Origin: a virus
Lineage: Duplodnaviria; Heunggongvirae; Uroviricota; Caudoviricetes
DNA length: 12,295 nucleotides
Reading direction: 5' to 3' (one strand)
IMG/VR virus record: IMGVR_UViG_2529292729_000023
Shown: in pieces, positions 1,303 through 12,295 of the stretch
How the letters are laid out: each line of letters starts with the position of its first letter
Numbering within the stretch: position 1 is the first letter of the stretch
Translations under genes and position numbers: made by a program
The notes under the pieces: model-generated
Databases searched by the model: none
Seen by the model: the letters and a program-made list of their open reading frames with translations, nothing else
Told to the model about the DNA's origin: nothing

Positions 1303-1504
1303 TCAGACTGCAAGATCCAAGGGAAGATCAGAAATATCCTTTAATCTTTTACCATTAACCATCACGGAAAGCATGTCAGCTGCATCGCTGAGCCCCAGTA
1401 TTTCAACTGCTGATATAAGTTCATAAAGCGCAAAATGATACACGCAATCTATATCACCAGTACCAAGAGCAATAGACGCCAGACGACTTGGAGTAGGCTC
1501 AGCA
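1303..1504 (-). pseudogene. restriction endonuclease gene, C-terminal fragment (67 codons) separated from its 5' part by IS10
   Basis: Minus-strand frame reads ...AEPTPSRLASIALGTGDID...LPLDLAV-stop immediately outside the IS10 outside end. It is in frame with the N-terminal fragment once IS10 and one copy of the 9-bp duplication are removed. Confidence 0.8.
1496..1504. repeat. 9-bp target-site duplication GGCTCAGCA (left copy)
   Basis: Identical 9-mer directly abuts both IS10 ends (1496-1504 and 2834-2842). It matches the IS10 target preference NGCTNAGCN. Confidence 0.9.
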
Positions 1505-1550
1505 CTGATGAATCCCCTAATGATTTTGGTAAAAATCATTAAGTTAAGGT

Positions 1551-1619
1551 GGATACACATCTTGTCATATGATCAAATGGTTTCGCGAAAAATCAATAAT
1601 CAGACAACAAGATGTGCGA
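1551..1619 (-). ncRNA. IS10 RNA-OUT antisense RNA (pOUT transcript), approximate coordinates
   Basis: Placed from established IS10 biology: about 69 nt, transcribed outward from element bp ~115, overlapping the transposase start (ATG at 1612). Coordinates are mapped from memory of the element, not seen as a distinct signal. Confidence 0.45.
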
Positions 1620-2820
1620 ACTCGATATTTTACACGACTCTCTTTACCAATTCTGCCCCGAATTACACTTAAAACGACTCAACAGCTTAACGTTGGCTTG
1701 CCACGCATTACTTGACTGTAAAACTCTCACTCTTACCGAACTTGGCCGTAACCTGCCAACCAAAGCGAGAACAAAACATAACATCAAACGAATCGACCGA
1801 TTGTTAGGTAATCGTCACCTCCACAAAGAGCGACTCGCTGTATACCGTTGGCATGCTAGCTTTATCTGTTCGGGCAATACGATGCCCATTGTACTTGTTG
1901 ACTGGTCTGATATTCGTGAGCAAAAACGACTTATGGTATTGCGAGCTTCAGTCGCACTACACGGTCGTTCTGTTACTCTTTATGAGAAAGCGTTCCCGCT
2001 TTCAGAGCAATGTTCAAAGAAAGCTCATGACCAATTTCTAGCCGACCTTGCGAGCATTCTACCGAGTAACACCACACCGCTCATTGTCAGTGATGCTGGC
2101 TTTAAAGTGCCATGGTATAAATCCGTTGAGAAGCTGGGTTGGTACTGGTTAAGTCGAGTAAGAGGAAAAGTACAATATGCAGACCTAGGAGCGGAAAACT
2201 GGAAACCTATCAGCAACTTACATGATATGTCATCTAGTCACTCAAAGACTTTAGGCTATAAGAGGCTGACTAAAAGCAATCCAATCTCATGCCAAATTCT
2301 ATTGTATAAATCTCGCTCTAAAGGCCGAAAAAATCAGCGCTCGACACGGACTCATTGTCACCACCCGTCACCTAAAATCTACTCAGCGTCGGCAAAGGAG
2401 CCATGGGTTCTAGCAACTAACTTACCTGTTGAAATTCGAACACCCAAACAACTTGTTAATATCTATTCGAAGCGAATGCAGATTGAAGAAACCTTCCGAG
2501 ACTTGAAAAGTCCTGCCTACGGACTAGGCCTACGCCATAGCCGAACGAGCAGCTCAGAGCGTTTTGATATCATGCTGCTAATCGCCCTGATGCTTCAACT
2601 AACATGTTGGCTTGCGGGCGTTCATGCTCAGAAACAAGGTTGGGACAAGCACTTCCAGGCTAACACAGTCAGAAATCGAAACGTACTCTCAACAGTTCGC
2701 TTAGGCATGGAAGTTTTGCGGCATTCTGGCTACACAATAACAAGGGAAGACTTACTCGTGGCTGCAACCCTACTAGCTCAAAATTTATTCACACATGGTT
2801 ACGCTTTGGGGAAATTATGA
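1612..2820 (+). CDS. tnpA: IS10 transposase (402 aa)
   Basis: Track ORF 1612..2820; product MCELDILHDSLYQFCPELHLKRLNSLTLACHALLDCKTLTLTELGRNLP... matches the IS10-Right transposase as I recall it, full length. Confidence 0.95.
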   Translation: MCELDILHDSLYQFCPELHLKRLNSLTLACHALLDCKTLTLTELGRNLPTKARTKHNIKRIDRLLGNRHLHKERLAVYRWHASFICSGNTMPIVLVDWSDIREQKRLMVLRASVALHGRSVTLYEKAFPLSEQCSKKAHDQFLADLASILPSNTTPLIVSDAGFKVPWYKSVEKLGWYWLSRVRGKVQYADLGAENWKPISNLHDMSSSHSKTLGYKRLTKSNPISCQILLYKSRSKGRKNQRSTRTHCHHPSPKIYSASAKEPWVLATNLPVEIRTPKQLVNIYSKRMQIEETFRDLKSPAYGLGLRHSRTSSSERFDIMLLIALMLQLTCWLAGVHAQKQGWDKHFQANTVRNRNVLSTVRLGMEVLRHSGYTITREDLLVAATLLAQNLFTHGYALGKL

Positions 2821-2833
2821 GGGGATCTCTCAG

Positions 2834-2842
2834 GGCTCAGCA
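2834..2842. repeat. 9-bp target-site duplication GGCTCAGCA (right copy)
   Basis: Second copy of the 9-mer, directly after the IS10 inside end. Confidence 0.9.
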
Positions 2843-3519
2843 GTAACAACCATTACATGAGGGAGATTTCCCTTACGGTTGCGAATAAGATTTAATGCCT
2901 CAGAACGAGCATTCTGGGCCCGGTCGCTTCTTATTGTCCATTTGCAGGAAATACTTGCGTGTAATATTGGTTTCCCACCATTCGAACTCCTGAGAGCTGA
3001 CATGCGGGTAACAGAATCATCCACCAGTAATTCAGGACTGTTGATAACTTGATCACATTCAGGTTCTCTTTCAACAATAATATCTGGTGAAATCGTATAA
3101 TCACTCCCCAGTGCAGCAGCTAGCTGAGGATTACTTTTTGCAGCACTATCCAATGCTATAAGATGGGCATATTGTTCATATTTAGCTATCTCTAATCTGT
3201 TTCTACCAGAAACCTGATGTACATTCCATTTTCCAGGGCGTAAGTGGCTGAGTTTAAAAAAGGTTTTTTCTATAAACTCTGCGCAGATACTCTCAAACTG
3301 ATTACCAGATGTTTGCCCTGCAACACGTTCACCAATCGTTTCAGCCTGCAAGAAGCGAGCAATTTCTCTTGCTATAGCTTTACTGTTTTTGTTACTGCTA
3401 TCTGCGTTACTAACAACTCCGGCAGTATTAATTGTGAGCGTATTCAGTAACAATTGGGCATGAAACTCCTTTCTGGCTTCAGCAAAACCAACTATGCTGT
3501 CAACCAAATCTCCATTCAT
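2834..3519 (-). pseudogene. Type II restriction endonuclease gene, N-terminal fragment (229 codons), truncated by IS10; PD...SxK...E active-site pattern
   Basis: Track ORF 2830..3654 trimmed to ATG 3519 (AAGGAAA 7 nt upstream, 13 nt after the methyltransferase stop). Frame runs ...HVMVVTAEP then hits a stop one codon inside IS10. Contains SPD (D146), SCK (S191/K193) and E207. Reconstructed intact gene would be 292 codons. Confidence 0.8.
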
Positions 3520-3532
3520 TTCTGGATTTCCT

Positions 3533-4657
3533 TCAGGCTGCTTGACTATTCTTACTGATGTTATTCTTATACCGTCCCTGCAAAACTCCATACACATATT
3601 GTGCGATTTTTGCCGCAAATAGCGGTGGAACAGCATTCCCGATCTGCTTTGCAATCTCAGTTTTTGAACCGGTAAAAATGAAATTATCAGGAAAAGACAT
3701 TAATCTCGCTGCCTCACGATGAGTTATTGGCCGATCCTCTTCCGGATGTAAATATCGCCCTTTCTCCGGTTTGAAAAACTCAGTACGAATCGTTACTGAA
3801 GGTCTGTCCCACCACAGACGTCCAAACAAATCGGTCCCTCCAGATTTCTTTTTTAGCCAGCACGCCGGGGTTATATCAGGTCTTTTTTTCTGTAAATCGA
3901 AACGGTTACCTCCTGGTGGAACCGCTTTATATCGCTCCAGAGAAACAGGTGTGGGATTACGCCCAAAATGTAAGTTCAGCGGAGGAAGTTCATTACGAAT
4001 ATCAGTTCCAACAGGAGCAGGTAAGTCACCAATTGCATCACGCGTACAGACCCATTCAGGCAAAGCGACATCCTTATCAGGGGAACGATGCGTTGGTGCT
4101 GGCGGGAACGCCGGAATACTATGCACATCGAAGAGTTCTCGTTTGATACCGATTGCTATCGTTCGTTTTCTTGTCTGAGGTACTCCATAGTCAGCAGTAT
4201 TCAACACCATTGGATTAAGCAGAATAAAGCCCATGGATTTCGCTCTAAACGTAATGTCCGCAAACTCATCGCTTATCAGCAATCCGGGGACATTTTCCAT
4301 GACGAACATACAAGCCCTTGAACGCTCAATGACATCCATATAAGGCTCCCACAATGCTCTTCGGTGATCACCATAACGATTCTTATTCAATAAACTGAAT
4401 CCCTGACACGGGGGGCCACCTATGACCACATCAGCCTCAGGAACAGTATTGCTGGATGCCCACTCCTCAATATTTGCCTGAACTCCATGCAAACCAAAAT
4501 TGGCATTGTAGGTATTTATAGCTGCAGCATTATTATCAATAGCAAGGATACTTTCAAAGTAGTCAGACATCTCTCCATGAAGAAAACCATAAGATAATCC
4601 ACCTGCCCCACAAAAGAGGTCTATCACTCTGAATTTATTTAATTCTTTCATCCGCAT
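3533..4657 (-). CDS. DNA (cytosine-5)-methyltransferase, intact (374 aa)
   Basis: Conserved C5-MTase motifs all present: FCGAGG (I), GGPPCQGFS (IV, catalytic Cys), ENV (VI), QTRKR (VIII), GNAVPP (X). GAGG sits 7 nt upstream of ATG 4657. Confidence 0.9.
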   Translation of the reverse strand: MRMKELNKFRVIDLFCGAGGLSYGFLHGEMSDYFESILAIDNNAAAINTYNANFGLHGVQANIEEWASSNTVPEADVVIGGPPCQGFSLLNKNRYGDHRRALWEPYMDVIERSRACMFVMENVPGLLISDEFADITFRAKSMGFILLNPMVLNTADYGVPQTRKRTIAIGIKRELFDVHSIPAFPPAPTHRSPDKDVALPEWVCTRDAIGDLPAPVGTDIRNELPPLNLHFGRNPTPVSLERYKAVPPGGNRFDLQKKRPDITPACWLKKKSGGTDLFGRLWWDRPSVTIRTEFFKPEKGRYLHPEEDRPITHREAARLMSFPDNFIFTGSKTEIAKQIGNAVPPLFAAKIAQYVYGVLQGRYKNNISKNSQAA

Positions 4658-4815
4658 CCATATGCCTCAGATTAATGTTGAGCGTCTTGCAGGACGCGTA
4701 ATGTTAACTGGGGCTTTTCTCTATCTGCCTTTTGGTGTTCATGCCTGAGACAGATAGCCTCAAGCACCCGCAGCAATTCTACTTAACTCTCCTTTTCCCG
4801 CAAACCGTTTTTACC

Positions 4816-4837
4816 CGATATGGGAATTCCCATATCG
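4816..4837. repeat. perfect 22-bp palindrome CGATATGGGAATTCCCATATCG
   Basis: Read directly: left half CGATATGGGAA, right half is its exact reverse complement. Lies between the 34-aa peptide gene and the methyltransferase gene; no U-tract on either strand. Confidence 0.7.
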
Positions 4838-4845
4838 TAATGAAT

Positions 4846-4950
4846 TCAGTTCCCTAGTCGATCCATCAAAAACACAACCAGGCAGTAAACGCCCACAACA
4901 GCAACAACAGCCAGCGCACCTTCCATTGCCAGTGATATATCATCCGACAT
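4846..4950 (-). CDS. small hydrophobic single-pass membrane peptide (34 aa)
   Basis: ATG 4950 preceded by AAGGAGGG; product MSDDISLAMEGALAVVAVVGVYCLVVFLMDRLGN. Below the ORF-track size cutoff. Confidence 0.4.
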   Translation of the reverse strand: MSDDISLAMEGALAVVAVVGVYCLVVFLMDRLGN

Positions 4951-4991
4951 ATTCCCTCCTTTGGTGTTAATCCCGGCGAACGTTTTTACCC

Positions 4992-5069
4992 TCACCGACA
5001 AATAACATATACTAAAAAAGCGATAGCCATAGCAACGCCTGTAATTGCAAATGCTTCAGGCCAGTTCAT
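4992..5069 (-). CDS. small hydrophobic membrane peptide (25 aa), likely translationally coupled to the DUF551 gene
   Basis: ATG 5069 overlaps the DUF551 stop as ATGA; AGGAGGT lies 6 nt upstream; product MNWPEAFAITGVAMAIAFLVYVICR. Shares a GV...VY.. core with the 34-aa peptide. Confidence 0.4.
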   Translation of the reverse strand: MNWPEAFAITGVAMAIAFLVYVICR

Positions 5070-5701
5070 TGGCGCACCTCCTGCGGCGGTTCCGGTAGTG
5101 GCATCCAGTGAGTTGCCTGCTCAATGCCATTACCCGGCTTAATCGTTGCTTGTCCTCGCCGAAAGGTACTTCCGGTATTGCGTGCGGAGCATATTAGTGG
5201 CTCAACCAGATCACTATCGAAATTCACCGAAATAAGTACGTTCTGATTCTTTTTCGGCATTCGCTCACTACAGCTTATCCAACCATCCGGAATTACCGGA
5301 GAGTTGCCATTTACATCGAAGTTTGGTTCTGCGTCCTGAACTAGGAGGATGTAACCATTCTTGGCTGTATCAAGTTCTAACGCCTCGGTTACGGTACCGA
5401 AATAGCGATTACCTAAATCCGCATCACAAGTGCTTACATCAATGGAAACCTCCATGCCTTCGATTAATTCTGGCAAGTTGTAAGTTTGGCTTACAGGCTC
5501 TGCTTCCAGTGATGCCAGTGCAATTCGTGCCAGCTCACGCACAACTTCAGGGGGCGCGTAACGGTCATTCAGGTCATCCCACAGGCGTAGCATGTTATCG
5601 CTACCAGGGTGAACATCCTCGTTAGTTCCGGCAAGCGCACTAATAACCTCATCGGCTGCTTCAATAATTTTCTGTGCCTGTTCTCTGGTAATAGTGGTCA
5701 T
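5066..5701 (-). CDS. DUF551-domain prophage protein (211 aa)
   Basis: Track ORF; C-terminal DGWISCSERMP...ATHWMPLPEPP is the pattern I associate with DUF551. AAGGA 7 nt upstream of ATG 5701, which overlaps the upstream stop as ATGA. Confidence 0.75.
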   Translation of the reverse strand: MTTITREQAQKIIEAADEVISALAGTNEDVHPGSDNMLRLWDDLNDRYAPPEVVRELARIALASLEAEPVSQTYNLPELIEGMEVSIDVSTCDADLGNRYFGTVTEALELDTAKNGYILLVQDAEPNFDVNGNSPVIPDGWISCSERMPKKNQNVLISVNFDSDLVEPLICSARNTGSTFRRGQATIKPGNGIEQATHWMPLPEPPQEVRQ

Positions 5702-5907
5702 TTGTTAATCCTTAAAACTTTATGCCCTGGCGCAAAAGCACGTGTTTTGTCTTTGCTTATTCGCCAGCCATCCTTACGTGCCTCTTTTGCACAGCCAGCC
5801 CATGACGTACCGATATATTCACCGAAGTCTGGTACTGGATATACACCTTCCGTACACTGGCGGCAGTCACAATAGAGATGCATGGTGTAACTTGCGGCAA
5901 TAGCCAT
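5698..5907 (-). CDS. small Cys-rich hypothetical protein (69 aa)
   Basis: Track ORF 5698..5979 trimmed to ATG 5907 (AAGGAGAG 6 nt upstream). Product MAIAASYTMHLYCDCRQCTEGVYP... with a CxC-x2-C cluster. Confidence 0.55.
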   Translation of the reverse strand: MAIAASYTMHLYCDCRQCTEGVYPVPDFGEYIGTSWAGCAKEARKDGWRISKDKTRAFAPGHKVLRINK

Positions 5908-5908
5908 A

Positions 5909-6271
5909 TCACTCTCCTTTAGTACGCAAGTGGTTTTTCCAGCGGTTTTGCGCCGCGCTGGGCTTTTTGCAAAAACCACAATCCATCATCCCGTAATGTT
6001 TCATTAACCCCATCCGTCGGTTGCTGAGTCTCACCCACTGCCAGACGCCAGGACCGTTTCTGCGAACTAATAGGATTTTTGCTTTACGGTTTTTCATCGC
6101 TTTGCTCTCCTGCGTTTCTTTGCTGCACGTCTCGCCGCCGCAATACCGGTACGACGTTTCGATACCGGAATGATGCTGCCAGCCATCAGGACATGCGGCA
6201 TAACTGTTAAGGCTGCCCCATGAAACCAGACCAGATAAGGCGATATCAGCATTACTCACTCCAGCAACCAT
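5909..6271 (-). CDS. hypothetical protein (120 aa) with CGGETC and CGFC Cys pairs; start uncertain, may be two smaller genes
   Basis: Frame open over 363 nt, but ATG 6271 has no Shine-Dalgarno. Internal ATG 6097 has AGGAGA upstream and would give a 62-aa product. Another frame gives a 52-aa ORF (6252 to 6094) with GGAG upstream and an ATGA junction at 6097. Confidence 0.4.
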   Translation of the reverse strand: MVAGVSNADIALSGLVSWGSLNSYAACPDGWQHHSGIETSYRYCGGETCSKETQESKAMKNRKAKILLVRRNGPGVWQWVRLSNRRMGLMKHYGMMDCGFCKKPSAAQNRWKNHLRTKGE

Positions 6272-6326
6272 TCTTTGGTTAATTCAGTCATTTTTCATTA
6301 CCGCCCTTTCGGGCGGCCTCCTGACA

Positions 6327-6539
6327 TTAATCGTTGTGATAACTCATAGCTTCATTTGCAGCATCAACTGGATCAACCTCCCTCCAGCAATAATTTGGGT
6401 CGGCTCCTTCAGGCGTCCACGGTTCTAATTCATTTTTTGCCGCATTCTCATCGCCAGTAATTTTAAAAATCTGCTCAGAGAATTTTCTTGCCCACTCGTT
6501 ATATTTTTCCGCATTAATGGCTTTCTGTGTATTTAACAT
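6327..6539 (-). CDS. hypothetical protein (70 aa)
   Basis: Track ORF; GGAGG 7 nt upstream of ATG 6539; acidic product MLNTQKAINAEKYNEWARKF... Confidence 0.6.
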   Translation of the reverse strand: MLNTQKAINAEKYNEWARKFSEQIFKITGDENAAKNELEPWTPEGADPNYCWREVDPVDAANEAMSYHND

Positions 6540-6589
6540 AAATATACCTCCAGTTAAGGATTAGATTTTATTTACAGCGCTAAATTTAT

Positions 6590-6946
6590 TTATTCAGTTC
6601 TGGATTTTGTCACCCTGCGTATCCGCGCTTTCGCGTTACGCTCAATCTGAATTAACTTTTCTATATTTTTCCGCCTTTCCTGTTCCTCCAGGCGCAATAG
6701 TTTTACATCATCTGCCAGCCTGGTTTCTCTTTTCGCAACAGAGAGCATCCAGTCAAATGGCTCCACAACTGCACCGCAGATTTTACAGCGGACCTGACGC
6801 TCTTTTTCGTCAACCCGGACAGAGGCGTGATGACAATATGGCCTTTCCGATGGCTCATAAAGAAAATTAACCTGATTACGTGGGTCATCCTCTTTTACCG
6901 GAAATAAAACAATATTACTTAACTCATCTTCTGGTTTTATTTCCAT
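6590..6946 (-). CDS. hypothetical protein (118 aa), putative zinc-ribbon plus charged coiled-coil tail
   Basis: Track ORF 6590..7003 trimmed to ATG 6946 (AAGGAGAGG upstream). Contains YCHH...RCKICGAV, then a Lys/Arg/Glu-rich C-terminus. Confidence 0.6.
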   Translation of the reverse strand: MEIKPEDELSNIVLFPVKEDDPRNQVNFLYEPSERPYCHHASVRVDEKERQVRCKICGAVVEPFDWMLSVAKRETRLADDVKLLRLEEQERRKNIEKLIQIERNAKARIRRVTKSRTE

Positions 6947-7003
6947 GCACCTCTCCTTTGATGCGAATGCCAGCGGCAATTGAAGCCTGATAGCTAATTT
7001 CAC

Positions 7004-7399
7004 TCACAGCACCACCTCCTGAAAATTCCCCTGACAGAACGCCAGTACACGCTGCATAACTTCGCTATTTCGGCACTCACTGCAAATTATGTTCTGATGC
7101 CTGTCATAGCGGCGTATTTCTCCGTCTGGTAACTTTCGAATCAATGTCTGGTCGGTTGTTTTCTCCGCTGCCTTACGCCATACGCGATACACCTGTTCTG
7201 ATGCAAAAACACCGTATTTACCGGGCATGTATAAATCGCCACAAGCCAGTACATCCACAAGGCAACGTCTGACTGAATGCCAGCCTGCTCCCGTCGCTCT
7301 CTCCAGTTGTGATATCGTCATGCGTTCATTTTTGCGTACCAACCCGATAATTCGGGCCTTCAGTTCTTCACGCTGTTCGTGTGTAAAAGGTTTCGCCAT
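7004..7399 (-). CDS. hypothetical protein (131 aa), possible winged-helix N-terminus
   Basis: Track ORF 7004..7414 begins at TTG; ATG 7399 has GGAGG 5 nt upstream. Product MAKPFTHEQREELKARIIGLVRKNERMTISQLERATG... Confidence 0.6.
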   Translation of the reverse strand: MAKPFTHEQREELKARIIGLVRKNERMTISQLERATGAGWHSVRRCLVDVLACGDLYMPGKYGVFASEQVYRVWRKAAEKTTDQTLIRKLPDGEIRRYDRHQNIICSECRNSEVMQRVLAFCQGNFQEVVL

Positions 7400-7414
7400 A
7401 AGCGCCTCCGGCAA

Positions 7415-8185
7415 TCACTTTTCCGACACAATACGACCGGATGAATCGACAATCTGCCGAACAATATCCCGGTGCTTGTTCAGTTCCCGCAGCGCGGCGC
7501 AGACACGCTCCCACTTCTGAACCTGACCTTTTGCCCGGCGCAGCTCGCGGTTAGCCACATGCAGCGATGGTAAAATCAGCCCATCCGGATGCTTTCTGGT
7601 GAACAACGGCTGTGACTGCACTGTGACCGCCACACTTTCAGTTTTTATTTCTTCCTGTGTCGTCGTTTCCTGGACTGGTAACGCAACACCTGTTGGCTGA
7701 GGAAAGGCTTTACCATCGGTTTCCGCTACGGATGCAGCTTCCGGCTCTGCCGGTAAATCAGCGCCCGGTATGCAGTAACGAAATTTACCGTTCTGATTTA
7801 CGCGTGCCAGGCGCCCCGTTGCTGTTACGACCGCCAACGTGGAAGCAACCTTGCGAATGCTAACACCGAACTTATCCGCCAGTTCCTCACACGTTTTAGC
7901 CCCATCCTGACAGATAAACTCAATCATCATGTCCGCGGTAACTTTTTGTTCGACCTCCCCGGTCAGCACATCCGGTACTTCAGACTGTGCTGGCTGCTCT
8001 TCGGTTACCCCGGATTCACCTTCACCAGCCAGAAACCAGGTGTGACCCGTTTTATCAACAACGCCATTTTTTTTGAGTTCCCACAGTTCGTTGAGAACTT
8101 CTTCACGGCTGATATCAAGCCGCGCCGCCAGTTCAACAGAATTGGCTTTACCCATCGCTTTCAGTGCATGCAATACGGTTTCCAT
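7415..8185 (-). CDS. hypothetical prophage early-region protein (256 aa) with two winged-helix-like segments
   Basis: Track ORF; GGAGG 8 nt upstream of ATG 8185. Two similar segments: [37 protein letters not shown] and [42 protein letters not shown]. Confidence 0.65.
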
Positions 8186-8214
8186 TAAAACTTCCTCCGG
8201 ATAAAAATTACTTC

Positions 8215-8955
8215 TCAGTTCCTGTGCTGGCTGACGTTCGGACGCCAGCTCTCCCAGTTAAACGTCACCCAGCGACCACCGTTCATGGACATGCGGTCCA
8301 TCACCCGCTCGCCGAGAAGTGTATTCATCGCTGCATGGTTAAGATTTGTCAGCATCCCCACACTGAGTAACGATGCCGTTCTGCGGTCAACAATCTGATT
8401 CAGCGTGACCTGCTCATTACGCGTATCCCGTTGCATGCCAATTTCATCCAGTACCAGCAGGTCAACGCCACACAATCCCTGCAAAAATTTTTCGCCCGAG
8501 TTTTTGTTGTCGTAGCTGCCATGTAACGCCAGCATCACATCCGCCACTGTTATCACAATCACACTGCGACCTTTCGCCAGAAGGTGGTTGCCAATAGCCG
8601 CCGCCAGGTGGTTTTTTCCTGTGCCAGGCCGGCCACTGAACACAAAATTCGTACAGCCGCCTTCCAGCTCTGCCGCAATGGATTTCGCCTGACTCAGGGC
8701 ATGGCGCTGACCATCGTTCTGCACCCGGTAGTTACCGAACGTACACTTCCGGTGAAGCGGCTGGATACCGGAGCGGTTAATGATTTTTTCAACCCGCGTC
8801 TGATGATTCAGACGATTAACCTCCTCGCTTCGCTTACGCCCTTCAGCAAGCTGCCATTCCCGCCACTCCGTCACCGTACGGTACGGAGGGATTGCATCCT
8901 GCGGCACAAATCTGCTGACTCTTGCCAGAACACCACCTGACGTAATGTTTTTCAT
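8215..8955 (-). CDS. DnaC/IstB-like AAA+ helicase-loader (246 aa)
   Basis: Walker A-like [15 protein letters not shown] and Walker B LLVLDEIG; positioned directly downstream of the O-like initiator, as in lambdoid replication modules. Confidence 0.8.
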
Positions 8956-8961
8956 GATGCG

Positions 8962-9939
8962 CTACCCCCTGAAACCCGGCGGAATTTCGGTATCCGGTTC
9001 AGAAATATGATTCACGCAACGCTGCGCGGGACCACGCCACAGTCGAATAACCAGTTCATCCCATTTCTCACGGAGTTTTTCCGGGCTCTTGATGTTTTTT
9101 ATCCAGAACGGATCCCGTTGTGCCCGGCTGAACATTTCGCAAATTTGTCTGTGACTTCTTCCATCCAGCATCCGCATTGTGCGCACGTCATTGGCCCACG
9201 CCGTCCAGTTGGGCTCTTTCGGTCGCGTGATCTCACCATCGTCACTGGCAGCCTGTTCGTACAGGTTTACAACCCGCCCCCAGATCCACTGCGCACATGT
9301 CAAATCCTCCCGGGTTCCCCACTGGCGTTTTTTCACGCTGAACACAACAGCATCAGGATGGCGGGTTAAAAACGCCTGTTCAGCCGTCAACTCGTCCGGT
9401 TGCGAAGCGTCCGGACAAGAGAGTTTTTTATTCTCTGTTGTATTCTCTGTTGTATTCTCTGTTGTATTCTCTGTAGGATCATCGGGCCATTTTGACCTGA
9501 TGACATTGGGCCGTTTTGAACCAATGGAACGTTTCATTTTGACCTCTTCCATCGTGTCATTTTGACCTGATGGAGTGGCGCATTTTGACCCGATGGATTC
9601 GTTCACTTTGCCATCATCTAAAAGCGCGCTATCGTAGTTAATTGTGTAAAAATTAGTCATATCACGCTTCGATTTATTGAGCTTTTCGCTACGCAAAAGC
9701 CCCAGCGCTTTCAGACTTGCAAACGCACGCTTTAACGTTGACTCTGACCAGAACGGAAACTGTTCCAGCCATTGTTCCGTTGTGTTGTAAATCCAGCGAA
9801 CGCCATCACATTCCATGCCGGAACTGGTATCCCTCAACCAGTAATGCAGTTGCTGCAACACAATGGCTTCGTTTAAACCAATCTTCATCGCCAGCTGTGT
9901 GTTTATAACCAGCGGGCGTTCAGCAAAAAGAAGGCTCAT
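8962..9939 (-). CDS. phage replication initiator, O-like (about 325 aa)
   Basis: Track ORF 8962..9981 starts at GTG 9981; first ATG is 9939 (MSLLFAERPLVINTQLAMKIGLNEAIVLQQLHYW...). Two families of direct repeats lie inside the coding sequence, as for the lambda origin inside gene O. Confidence 0.75.
   Translation of the reverse strand: MSLLFAERPLVINTQLAMKIGLNEAIVLQQLHYWLRDTSSGMECDGVRWIYNTTEQWLEQFPFWSESTLKRAFASLKALGLLRSEKLNKSKRDMTNFYTINYDSALLDDGKVNESIGSKCATPSGQNDTMEEVKMKRSIGSKRPNVIRSKWPDDPTENTTENTTENTTENKKLSCPDASQPDELTAEQAFLTRHPDAVVFSVKKRQWGTREDLTCAQWIWGRVVNLYEQAASDDGEITRPKEPNWTAWANDVRTMRMLDGRSHRQICEMFSRAQRDPFWIKNIKSPEKLREKWDELVIRLWRGPAQRCVNHISEPDTEIPPGFRG
9431..9474. repeat. tandem 12-bp repeat TTCTCTGTTGTA, about 3.7 copies, in frame (encodes TENT repeats)
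   Basis: Read directly: units at 9431-9442, 9443-9454, 9455-9466, partial 9467-9474. Translates on the minus strand as TENTTENTTENTTEN. Confidence 0.85.
9488..9612. repeat. six iteron-like direct repeats, core CATTTTGACC, 23-24 bp period; candidate replication origin
   Basis: Cores at 9488, 9512 (CGTTTTGAACC), 9535, 9558, 9581, 9604 (CACTTTGCC). Followed by an AT-rich stretch at 9619-9660. Confidence 0.65.
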
Positions 9940-10441
9940 AATTCCATCCGGCTTTTTGTTGGTACTGGTGACGATAGGCACGCTTGAAAGCGATTGCTTT
10001 TTCTATAAGCTCGTCTGTCTCACGTTCCACAACAGCTGGATCTGCAAAAAGCAGCCCGGACTCCACCACATCGCCATATTCTTTGTTTAACCCGGCAATC
10101 ATGTACGTAATGCTTTTTCCGTCAGTAATTTCGCGGTACAACCTGAAATCACTAATCCGGATAGCCTCCATAATTGCCGGAATCAGCGCCGTGAATTTTT
10201 CACGCTTATCCCTGGTGTCGATAGCCTTCCAGCGTTCGAATATCTTCACCCGGTTAACGCCAAGCGCACGCTGATCAACCCCGCCATCATCAAGCGTGAC
10301 ACGCTGAACATCGATGTTCGGGCGTTCCTGTAGAGCCCAGAAGGCTTCAGTAATTAATATCGTCGCCTGCTCCTGCGTCATTCCTGGTCTGCATACCCAG
10401 GCATCCAGAGCCTCGCAAACCTGTTCAGGTGTGATTTTCAT
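9920..10441 (-). CDS. YdaT-like protein in the CII-equivalent position (173 aa)
   Basis: Track ORF; second gene of the leftward early operon. Product MKITPEQVCEALDAWV...KFTALIPAIMEAI... resembles YdaT-type prophage proteins as I recall them. Confidence 0.6.
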   Translation of the reverse strand: MKITPEQVCEALDAWVCRPGMTQEQATILITEAFWALQERPNIDVQRVTLDDGGVDQRALGVNRVKIFERWKAIDTRDKREKFTALIPAIMEAIRISDFRLYREITDGKSITYMIAGLNKEYGDVVESGLLFADPAVVERETDELIEKAIAFKRAYRHQYQQKAGWNYEPSFC

Positions 10442-10703
10442 TGTTCACCGCCAGTAATTCATTCGCTGTACTCTTACGTCCACAAGGCAGGCCATCGGTT
10501 GGGTTAGGGTAAATATCTGGTCGGAGCTCGTGGGGGGTGACAGTCCACGCCATAATCTCACATAGTTGTAAAACCCTTGATGCAGGGACCTGTTGCCCAT
10601 TAACCCATCGACATACAACCTGCTGTGGCAACCCAATCAAGCGAGCAACACCCGCTTGGGATAACCCTATTTGGCGAATTTTATTTTTTAAACATTTATG
10701 CAT
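10425..10703 (-). CDS. Cro-like HTH regulator (YdaS-like), 92 aa
   Basis: Track ORF 10425..10739 starts at GTG; ATG 10703 has GGAG 8 nt upstream. HTH segment LSQAGVARLIGLPQQVVCRW. Divergent from the repressor gene. Confidence 0.65.
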   Translation of the reverse strand: MHKCLKNKIRQIGLSQAGVARLIGLPQQVVCRWVNGQQVPASRVLQLCEIMAWTVTPHELRPDIYPNPTDGLPCGRKSTANELLAVNNENHT

Positions 10704-10730
10704 ATCGCTAACTCCAATCAATCGACACCA

Positions 10731-10804
10731 CTTATACACTTTAAAAGTTACACTATCAACACTTTCAAGCTGATTGTGCTGGCTACACTTTTTTTGTGTA
10801 AAAT
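10731..10804. promoter_or_regulatory. divergent promoter-operator region of the immunity switch
   Basis: Three ACACTTT-containing sites (10736, 10759, 10785) fitting CACTT-N4-AAGTG half-site symmetry. Leftward promoter on the minus strand: -35 TTGATA (10754-10759), 17-bp spacer, -10 TATAAG (10731-10736). Rightward -10 TAAAAT (10799-10804) ends 7 nt before the repressor ATG. Confidence 0.45.
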
Positions 10805-10810
10805 GAATGC

Positions 10811-11218
10811 ATGAAGCGAATGACCACTCTTGAAATAACCACGTACCGGATAAAACTGGTGCTGGAAAAAACAGGGCTTAAGCAAGCAGAACTAGCCCGC
10901 AGAATAGGTGTTGCCCAACAATCGGTCCAAAAGTGGGTTCATGGCATCACAAGCCCATCAATGGCTAATCTTGATAAACTTTCTGAAGTAACAGGATTCC
11001 CTCCATATTGGTTTATGTTGCCACCAAGTGAGGACGAACAGATTGTGGTACCTGACACAATGAAAATAGGTCCGAAGCAAAGAGAGCTACTTCAGACATT
11101 TGGTGCATTCCCAGAGGAAGAACAGGGACAAATGCTTCAGGAGATGAAAGACAAAAAAGAGTTAATGGAGCGCACAATTGAAAGATGGCTCGCTGCCCGG
11201 AAAGGGCATCGAGCATAA
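10811..11218 (+). CDS. XRE-family HTH repressor (CI-like / PaaR-like), 135 aa, no S24 peptidase domain
   Basis: HTH GLKQAELARRIGVAQQSVQKWVHG; divergent from the Cro-like gene; no Ala-Gly / Ser-Lys autocleavage module in the C-terminal half. Confidence 0.8.
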   Translation: MKRMTTLEITTYRIKLVLEKTGLKQAELARRIGVAQQSVQKWVHGITSPSMANLDKLSEVTGFPPYWFMLPPSEDEQIVVPDTMKIGPKQRELLQTFGAFPEEEQGQMLQEMKDKKELMERTIERWLAARKGHRA

Positions 11219-11247
11219 TGACCACCATACACAGACGGAGGTGTGCC

Positions 11248-11436
11248 ATGAATACGGCCCTTTCACCAATGGTTTCTGAGTTCGAAACCATTGAACAAGA
11301 AAACAGTTACAACGAATGGCTGCGTGCGAAAGTAGCAGCGAGCCTTGCAAATCCGCGCCCAGCAATTCCCCATGACGAGGTTGAGCGCAGAATGGCAGAA
11401 CGCTTTGCTAAAATGCGCAAGGAACGGAGTAAGTAG
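11248..11436 (+). CDS. antitoxin partner of ParE (PaaA-like), 62 aa
   Basis: Track ORF 11185..11436 trimmed to ATG 11248 (GGAGG 6 nt upstream). Stop lies 3 nt before the toxin ATG. Product MNTALSPMVSEFETIEQENSYNEWLRAKVAASLANPRPAIPHDEVERRMAERFAKMRKERSK. Confidence 0.65.
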   Translation: MNTALSPMVSEFETIEQENSYNEWLRAKVAASLANPRPAIPHDEVERRMAERFAKMRKERSK

Positions 11437-11439
11437 TAA

Positions 11440-11727
11440 ATGTTACCCGTGTTATGGCTTGAAAGCGCAGATACCGACCTAGATGATATAACTAGTTATA
11501 TTGCTCGTTTCGACATAGATGCGGCAGAACGCTTATGGCAGCGATTAAGGGGGTGTGTGCTGCCGTTATCCGAACACCCGTATTTATACCCACCAAGCGA
11601 CAGAGTACCTGGCTTGCGTGAGATTGTAGCTCACCCTAACTATATAATTCTTTACCGTGTAGCCACTTTAAGCATTGAGATCGTGAGTGTAGTACACGCC
11701 AGACGCCAATTCCCCAAGCAGAACTAA
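11440..11727 (+). CDS. parE: ParE/RelE-family type II toxin (95 aa)
   Basis: Product MLPVLWLESADTDLDDITSYIARFDIDAAERLWQRLRG...PGLREIVAHPNYIILYRVATLSIEIVSVVHARRQF follows the ParE-family pattern. Confidence 0.8.
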   Translation: MLPVLWLESADTDLDDITSYIARFDIDAAERLWQRLRGCVLPLSEHPYLYPPSDRVPGLREIVAHPNYIILYRVATLSIEIVSVVHARRQFPKQN

Positions 11728-11739
11728 CCCTTTCACAGG

Positions 11740-11767
11740 GCCGTCTCATCTCGAGGCGGTTTTTGTT
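11740..11767 (+). terminator. rho-independent terminator after the repressor-antitoxin-toxin operon
   Basis: Stem CCGTCTC (11741-11747) pairs with GAGGCGG (11753-11759) including one G-U pair; 5-nt loop; then TTTTTGTT. Confidence 0.6.
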
Positions 11768-11778
11768 GCTCACAACCT

Positions 11779-11814
11779 AACTTTATAAGTGTTGACATAA
11801 TAACTTTAAAAGTG
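11779..11814. promoter_or_regulatory. second operator-like cluster with a -35-like TTGACA
   Basis: AACTTTATAAGTG (11779-11791) and AACTTTAAAAGTG (11802-11814), 23 bp apart, flank TTGACA (11792-11797). Same CACTT-N4-AAGTG-type motif as at 10736. No convincing -10 hexamer seen. Confidence 0.35.
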
Positions 11815-11998
11815 CATCCTTGTTTCACCAACCCACCCCATTCAACAGAACGCAGGGCAATACTTCGAGTTACCCGGCAGTGGTCAGGGGTTAAGTAGCC
11901 AGCCCGAGGCGTATGAACATGACGGCGGGAACACTTTGTATAACAGCGCAGCAGGTTTTTAGTTCCGCGACCCGGCGTTAAGGGTAAATGAGGTCAAC

Positions 11999-12151
11999 AT
12001 GGATACTATCGATCTTGGCAACAACGAATCTCTGGTATGTGGCGTGTTTCCCAATCAGGACGGCACATTCACCGCCATGACGTATACCAAAAGCAAATCG
12101 TTTAAAACCGAAGCTGGCGCGCATCGCTGGTTAGCAAGAAACTCCGACTAA
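11999..12151 (+). CDS. small hypothetical protein (50 aa)
   Basis: ATG 11999 with GAGG 5 nt upstream; product MDTIDLGNNESLVCGVFPNQDGTFTAMTYTKSKSFKTEAGAHRWLARNSD. Below the ORF-track size cutoff. Confidence 0.5.
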   Translation: MDTIDLGNNESLVCGVFPNQDGTFTAMTYTKSKSFKTEAGAHRWLARNSD

Positions 12152-12162
12152 TGAGGTTGACG

Positions 12163-12295
12163 ATGGAATTTAAAGATTTACCTCCTTCAATCCAGGAGAT
12201 TGCAGCACACACACTTCGTCATCGTCTGAACGAACTTGAATTGGAATCGGTAACGAAAAAAGACACTGATAATATGGCTCGTAATGTGCGCGATA
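12163..12295 (+). CDS. hypothetical protein, 5' part only (runs off the right edge)
   Basis: ATG 12163 with GAGG 6 nt upstream; MEFKDLPPSIQEIAAHTLRHRLNELELESVTKKDTDNMARNVRD... continues beyond the window. Confidence 0.45.
   Translation, partial: MEFKDLPPSIQEIAAHTLRHRLNELELESVTKKDTDNMARNVRD

Follow-up and report, generated by a model that had tools for sequence, protein, structure and literature searches.

An IS10-interrupted NgoMIV-family endonuclease gene beside an intact cytosine methyltransferase gene in a lambdoid prophage of Escherichia coli

The locus described here raises the question of which restriction enzyme was encoded by an open reading frame that now ends at the border of an IS10 element, and whether its shortened product could still cut DNA. 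The window, i.e., the whole stretch of 12,295 nucleotides that was analysed, is the complete contig AMXQ01000223.1 of the assembly GCA_000313445.1, which is a 454 draft of the STEC O111:H8 strain CFSAN001632 (PMC3656200). Positions 1303-4657 on the minus strand hold a type II cassette of two genes, in which the gene for an m5C methyltransferase precedes that for an NgoMIV-family endonuclease; as a moron, the cassette lies within the early region of a lambdoid prophage. We consider it very probable that this NgoMIV-family cassette was split by IS10, that the remaining endonuclease fragment is dead and that the methyltransferase was left as an orphan.

Endonuclease family, methyltransferase partner and predicted specificity

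The 5' part of the endonuclease gene was found on the minus strand at 2830..3519 (229 codons). Translation of this ORF, which starts with the ATG at 3519 and stops with the TGA at 2832-2830, gives a product of 229 aa that ends in ...VVTAEP; the inside end of IS10 contributes the third position of codon 229 as well as the TGA that terminates the ORF, and codon 229 encodes proline in both alleles (CCC in the window and CCT in the intact allele). The displaced 3' remnant, which comprises codons 227-292 and the stop, lies on the same strand at 1303..1504. Excising IS10 together with one copy of the repeat that flanks it joins 3519..2843 to 1504..1303 and results in an ORF of 292 aa; comparison with the 229-aa product bears out the earlier claim that IS10 takes off the last 63 residues, as exactly residues 230-292 were lost through the insertion.

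The match of the reconstructed protein to Pfam PF09015 (NgoMIV_restric) spans profile positions 1-275 of 275 and scores 423 bits (E 6.1e-127), with the cut-off at 23.2, and the Pfam scan of this protein returned no other family. On the PADLOC REase_II model (286 positions), the truncated product covered positions 5-223 and the remnant positions 219-286. The match to NgoMIV in the PDB (1FIU/4ABT) had an E-value of 9.6e-119, and the global alignment to NgoMIV revealed 185 identical residues out of 285 (65%), with all 15 key residues mapped at a constant offset of +6. The active site of NgoMIV and the equivalence of E71 and E204 in Cfr10I were described previously (PMC2532715); the NgoMIV positions that the original prediction had named (E70, D140, K187 and E201) and its uniform offset of +6 agree with both the alignment and the literature. 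Thus, E70, D140, S185, K187 and E201 of NgoMIV correspond to the catalytic residues E76, D146, S191, K193 and E207 of the window protein, and the translation of 3519..2830 places E76, P145, D146, S191, K193 and E207 at the positions that had been claimed for them. The CCGG readout R191-S192-D193-R194 corresponds to R197-S198-D199-R200, while the residues that contact the outer G:C and the minor groove, D34, R227 and Q63, correspond to D40, R233 and Q69.

Enzymes of the CCGG family have been characterised by the motif PDX46-53KX13E, an RXDR readout and the Q63 contact (PMC3413111). Both this permuted motif and the fold similarity of the CCGG-family PD-(D/E)XK enzymes were found in the window protein, in which the spacing is P145-D146-X46-K193-X13-E207; the distance of 14 positions from K193 to E207, with 13 residues between them, is the one that had been predicted. 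The AlphaFold model was built on a 292-aa homologue (P0001) that is 89% identical to the reconstructed protein, using an alignment of 71 sequences down to ~40% identity (pLDDT 94.1, pTM 0.91). A first model from a shallow alignment, in which all of the homologues were at least 75% identical to the first row, reached a pLDDT of 56.5 and was discarded. Comparing the model with the CCGG-family enzymes gave values of 11.8 for AgeI, 11.7 for Bse634I, 11.5 for BsaWI, 11.5 for PfoI, 11.2 for SgrAI, 11.1 for PspGI and 11.0 for Cfr10I. The three-dimensional NgoMIV fold was also found and, together with the matches to PF09015 and to NgoMIV in the PDB, it supports the original prediction. When the PDB was searched with phmmer and with the 71-sequence profile, Cfr10I and Bse634I gave no match at E<=10 and only NgoMIV was returned. 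Because of this, the endonuclease belongs to the NgoMIV family and not to the Cfr10I family, and the description “NgoMIV/Cfr10I-like” holds for NgoMIV but, in the case of Cfr10I, only for the likeness in fold and active-site architecture, to which the resemblance is confined. The family is large, with 972 clusters at 50% identity (E<=1e-3).

In NgoMIV, the outer G:C is specified by D34 and R227 (PMC5389614, PMC6326814, PMC4652773). Their counterparts, D40 and R233, are both present in the reconstructed gene, and R233 is absent from the 229-aa product. By homology with NgoMIV, the intact endonuclease would be a Mg-dependent enzyme of the PD...KX13E type in which the R-S-D-R tip of a helix reads CCGG and D40 and R233 read the outer G:C; its predicted specificity is GCCGGC, and G^CCGGC would be cut unless the methyltransferase had modified the site. 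A specificity like that of Cfr10I and Bse634I (RCCGGY) is unlikely, although the PDX46KX13E and R-S-D-R motifs are common to both groups of enzymes, and the partner methyltransferase is not of the M.NgoMIV type and hence provides no tie to GCCGGC. Cfr10I, Bse634I and the other CCGG enzymes are without the outer-base readout of D34 and R227. The predicted recognition sequence GCCGGC occurs once in the window, at 8628 as had been noted, while 2.8 +/- 1.6 occurrences would be expected; RCCGGY occurs five times compared with an expected 9.7 +/- 3.0. The ACCGGT that had been placed near 6146 starts at 6145, and a second one was found at 3668. The numbers of both GCCGGC and RCCGGY are within chance and are uninformative for a window of 12 kb.

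The C5-cytosine DNA methyltransferase gene at 3533..4657 on the minus strand is intact (372 aa from the RefSeq start, the ATG at 4651). A gap of 13 nt that includes AGGAAA separates its end from the ATG of the endonuclease gene, and a search for a consensus promoter upstream of the methyltransferase found none. The protein matched PF00145 (4.2e-54) and TIGR00675 (154.5 bits, cut-off 100.65), and the C5-methyltransferase motifs I, IV, VI, VIII and X were all located (FCGAGG at 15, PPCQ at 82, ENV at 121, QTRKR at 161 and GNAV at 340). Moreover, the genomes with an intact endonuclease carry a methyltransferase gene with exactly the same coding sequence. An orthologous relationship with M.NgoMIV was rejected: the methyltransferase from the window (372-374 aa) and the 312-aa M.NgoMIV, which is encoded upstream of NgoMIV in Neisseria gonorrhoeae, share 22% identity and only the common motifs. 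Among 80 loci of NgoMIV relatives, a gene of the M.NgoMIV type (56-100% identical to M.NgoMIV) was directly upstream in 78, while the E. coli type of methyltransferase was present in only one, an Oscillatoria. Endonucleases that are 75-79% identical to the one in the window (Yersinia aldovae, Burkholderia pseudomallei and Methylomonas) have an M.NgoMIV-type partner, and a Cronobacter endonuclease that is 84% identical has a partner of the E. coli type. The association of one endonuclease family with two unrelated m5C lineages indicates that the modification gene was exchanged within the family. This is a modest point for the evolution of restriction-modification systems, as the pairing pattern illustrates modular exchange even among endonucleases that are ~75-84% identical. 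The NgoMIV-family cassettes of some of these bacteria are carried in other mobile settings; in Yersinia aldovae, the cassette lies in a P2-like prophage between the Phage_GPA and Ogr/portal genes, and in Burkholderia pseudomallei it adjoins a Vsr mismatch endonuclease gene and a resolvase.

Not being orthologous to M.NgoMIV, the methyltransferase gives no independent support for the specificity, and because of its different lineage the prediction of GCCGGC rests on the recognition residues of the endonuclease. The methylase motif itself could be GCCGGC or a broader motif that still covers GCCGGC. A GCCGGC or RCCGGY system had originally been deduced from the pairing with a C5-methyltransferase; an intact m5C gene does adjoin the endonuclease gene, but this pairing adds no independent support.

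The truncated product

The original prediction had also stated that the truncated fragment holds the whole catalytic core. The 229-aa product carries D40, Q69, E76, P145-D146, S191-C192-K193, R197-S198-D199-R200 and E207. [quoted passage not shown] These elements form the minimal alpha-beta-beta-beta-alpha-beta core of PD-(D/E)XK enzymes, and according to the model the cut at 229 falls three residues past strand 221-226, the last one of this core, and four residues before R233. The part that was lost is modelled as helix 231-238 with R233, strand 246-249, helices 252-262 and 265-276, strand 280-282 and helix 283-291. It is encoded by the 3' remnant, in which R233 (R227 in NgoMIV) and a strongly conserved block, TPSRLASIALGTGDIDCVYHFALYEL...DISDLPLDLAV, are found. 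Invariant columns made up 81% of 230-260 and 49% of 1-229 when 35 close homologues were compared, and in the 71 diverse members the columns that were conserved in at least 90% accounted for 37% of 230-292 and 16% of 1-229. Only six columns were invariant among these 71 members, and five of them (Y248, E254, L255, D282 and D289) are in the lost part. The statement about the catalytic core is thus correct for the four catalytic residues, R-S-D-R and the minimal core, but it does not extend to R233, the conserved block and the strand and four helices that follow, and it is because of the loss of these elements, among them the most conserved block of the family, that activity of the fragment is unlikely.

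Judging from its sequence and the model, the 229-aa fragment is most likely inactive. For it to be an active nuclease, either a CCGG-directed nickase or an enzyme of relaxed specificity, is very unlikely, even though E76, D146, K193, E207 and R197-D199-R200 were all kept and, in the model, the last strand of the minimal core is complete three residues ahead of the cut. The residue that specifies the outer G:C in NgoMIV as R227, i.e., R233, is missing, and the most conserved 63 residues, with five of the six invariant columns, are gone. The primary dimers of NgoMIV, Cfr10I, Bse634I and AgeI are built from pairs of helices of the catalytic domain (PMC5389614), and by analogy the lost helix that follows strand 221-226 probably contributes to dimerisation. 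Moreover, selection should act against an active enzyme relaxed to NCCGGN, which a methylase specific for GCCGGC would not cover. The product of the interrupted gene would most likely be misfolded or incapable of forming a functional dimer or tetramer, though given that the minimal core was retained in the model, residual binding or nicking may occur.

The IS10 insertion and the prophage setting

The element that interrupts the endonuclease gene is located on the plus strand at 1505..2833 (1329 bp), with the outside end at 1505 and the inside end at 2833, and it contains an intact ORF for an IS4-family transposase of 402 aa at 1612-2820 (+), the ATG of which is nucleotide 108 of IS10. It is flanked by a 9-bp target-site duplication, GGCTCAGCA, the left copy of which is at 1496..1504 and the right copy, a perfect direct repeat of the left one, at 2834..2842. 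Published IS10 is 1329 bp long, generates a 9-bp duplication and prefers the target NGCTNAGCN (PMC4574204); GGCTCAGCA fits this consensus and is therefore a perfect IS10 hotspot. The length, the terminal inverted repeats, the 402-aa DDE transposase and the 9-bp duplication at NGCTNAGCN place the element in IS10, and copies that are at least 99% identical to it are present in many E. coli genomes. IS10 would have transposed into the hotspot at codons 227-229 and thereby split the endonuclease gene.

The interrupted allele was found in none of 5,426 complete E. coli genomes, and an exact search of representative genomes for the junction between IS10 and the endonuclease gave no match. Owing to these two results, the insertion looks recent and strain- or lineage-specific. 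The same results, together with the origin of the sequence from a 20x 454 draft and a metagenome scaffold that shares the 229-aa product and ends with the base of the intact allele, would also fit an interruption that arose as an artefact of the 454/Newbler assembly, in which case the real gene would be intact. This is extremely unlikely, because a chimeric assembly does not yield an exact element with a perfect duplication at a hotspot, whereas here both IS10 ends, the exact length of 1329 bp and the perfect 9-bp duplication at the consensus hotspot are present. Additionally, both IS10 junctions recur over 3,520 bp in a Logan assembly that was made independently from run SRR578810, although these are possibly reads of the same strain. 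The metagenome scaffold from ENA (1041 bp) stops one base past the IS10 target site, and its last base is the T of the intact allele and not the C of IS10, for which reason it was rejected as independent support for the IS10 allele. The break of the scaffold at the insertion point might reflect a mixture of intact and IS10 alleles in the sample, or it might be a coincidence.

The insertion also created a fusion ORF at 1303..1560 on the minus strand, which is purely mechanical and comprises 85 aa, or 78 aa if the second ATG (1539) is taken as the start. It starts inside the outside end of IS10 (IS10 nucleotide 56 or 35) and continues in frame into endonuclease codons 227-292; its 78-aa version is listed in a public gene call with a match to PF09015. 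The outward promoter of IS10 points in the same direction as this ORF, the start codons of which fall within the RNA-OUT region of IS10. There is a next to negligible probability that the N-terminal fragment and the product of the fusion ORF, expressed by read-through from the outward promoter, reassemble as a two-piece NgoMIV-like enzyme or cause altered CCGG-directed nicking or binding.

The cassette without IS10, with an identical coding sequence, was found in lambdoid prophages of 60 of the 5,426 complete E. coli genomes, in all cases on the chromosome, and 59 of the 60 copies were at least 99% identical. Among the strains that carry it are O157:H7 strain 9000 and many bovine isolates of O157, as well as O111:H11, O103:H2 and O39:NM. 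Compared with strain 9000, the window has one difference in 2,113 bases, at 4689, and both coding sequences are identical. This position, which is 32 nt upstream of the ATG at 4657, is G in the window and A in O157 strain 9000 and O111:H11; a regulatory change of the methyltransferase was considered and rejected, as strain A34 also has G, which makes the difference an ordinary polymorphism. In O157 strain 9000, QueH is on the other side of the cassette.

The neighbouring genes are those of a lambdoid early region (cI/Cro-like HTH, YdaS/YdaT, O-like initiator, DnaC-like loader, DUF1627, DUF977, DUF551 and DUF968). A prophage of strain 2012C-4227 is 99.9% identical over positions 4700-12295 of the window, and the place of the cassette is taken there by hokD and a hypothetical gene (positions 4709-5400 of that locus). 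The occurrence of these genes in the same slot indicates that the cassette is a swappable moron in a variable slot. The cassette had no match in the phage collection that was searched.

Several other features of the prophage were observed. The 339-aa ORF of the O-like replication initiator (8962-9981, minus strand) contains a perfect tandem repeat of 12 bp x 3.8 (TATTCTCTGTTG) at 9429-9474, which encodes a repeated TENT peptide (DPTENTTENTTENTTENKK), and a looser repeat of 23 bp x 2.5 lies nearby at 9552-9610; both may be iteron-like origin repeats. The YdaS/YdaT-like genes are located at 9920-10739 on the minus strand. A pair of genes that encode a RelB-family antitoxin and a ParE/RelE-family toxin at 11185-11727 (plus strand) adjoins the immunity region of the prophage.

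Consequences and comparison with known systems

A restriction-negative and modification-positive locus is the usual outcome of a mobile element landing in a restriction gene, and this would also be the state of the locus in the window, with the methyltransferase persisting as an orphan. CFSAN001632 is predicted to be without the restriction barrier that is conferred by the sister prophages, and cytosine methylation was probably kept, which has a bearing on the interpretation of the methylome, DNA uptake and the phage susceptibility of this O111:H8 strain. For annotation, the locus should be read as an endonuclease pseudogene of the NgoMIV family that was disrupted by IS10, next to an m5C methyltransferase gene that survives as an orphan; it has little significance beyond this. 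The intact gene already bears its correct name in RefSeq, and insertions of IS10 at consensus hotspots are routine events. Literature searches gave no specific account of NgoMIV-like systems in prophages of E. coli, nor of methylation of GCCGGC in O157.

The closest known counterpart is the RefSeq pair WP_001012717.1 (“NgoMIV family type II restriction endonuclease”, 292 aa) and WP_001427299.1 (“DNA cytosine methyltransferase”), which has identical coding sequences and occupies the same prophage slot beside the DUF968 and antiterminator genes. The RefSeq alleles are uninterrupted, whereas the allele in the window has IS10 at codons 227-229. The element itself is like IS10-Right of Tn10 (IS4 family) in its length, transposase and duplication, and is a standard copy with no notable difference. 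Compared with NgoMIV of Neisseria gonorrhoeae, a type IIF tetramer that cuts G^CCGGC, the window protein has six extra N-terminal residues, and its gene rides a lambdoid E. coli prophage and is split by IS10 in CFSAN001632. Cfr10I and Bse634I (R^CCGGY), as well as SgrAI, AgeI, BsaWI, PfoI and PspGI, belong to other Pfam families, and neither sequence nor profile similarity to the window protein was detected.
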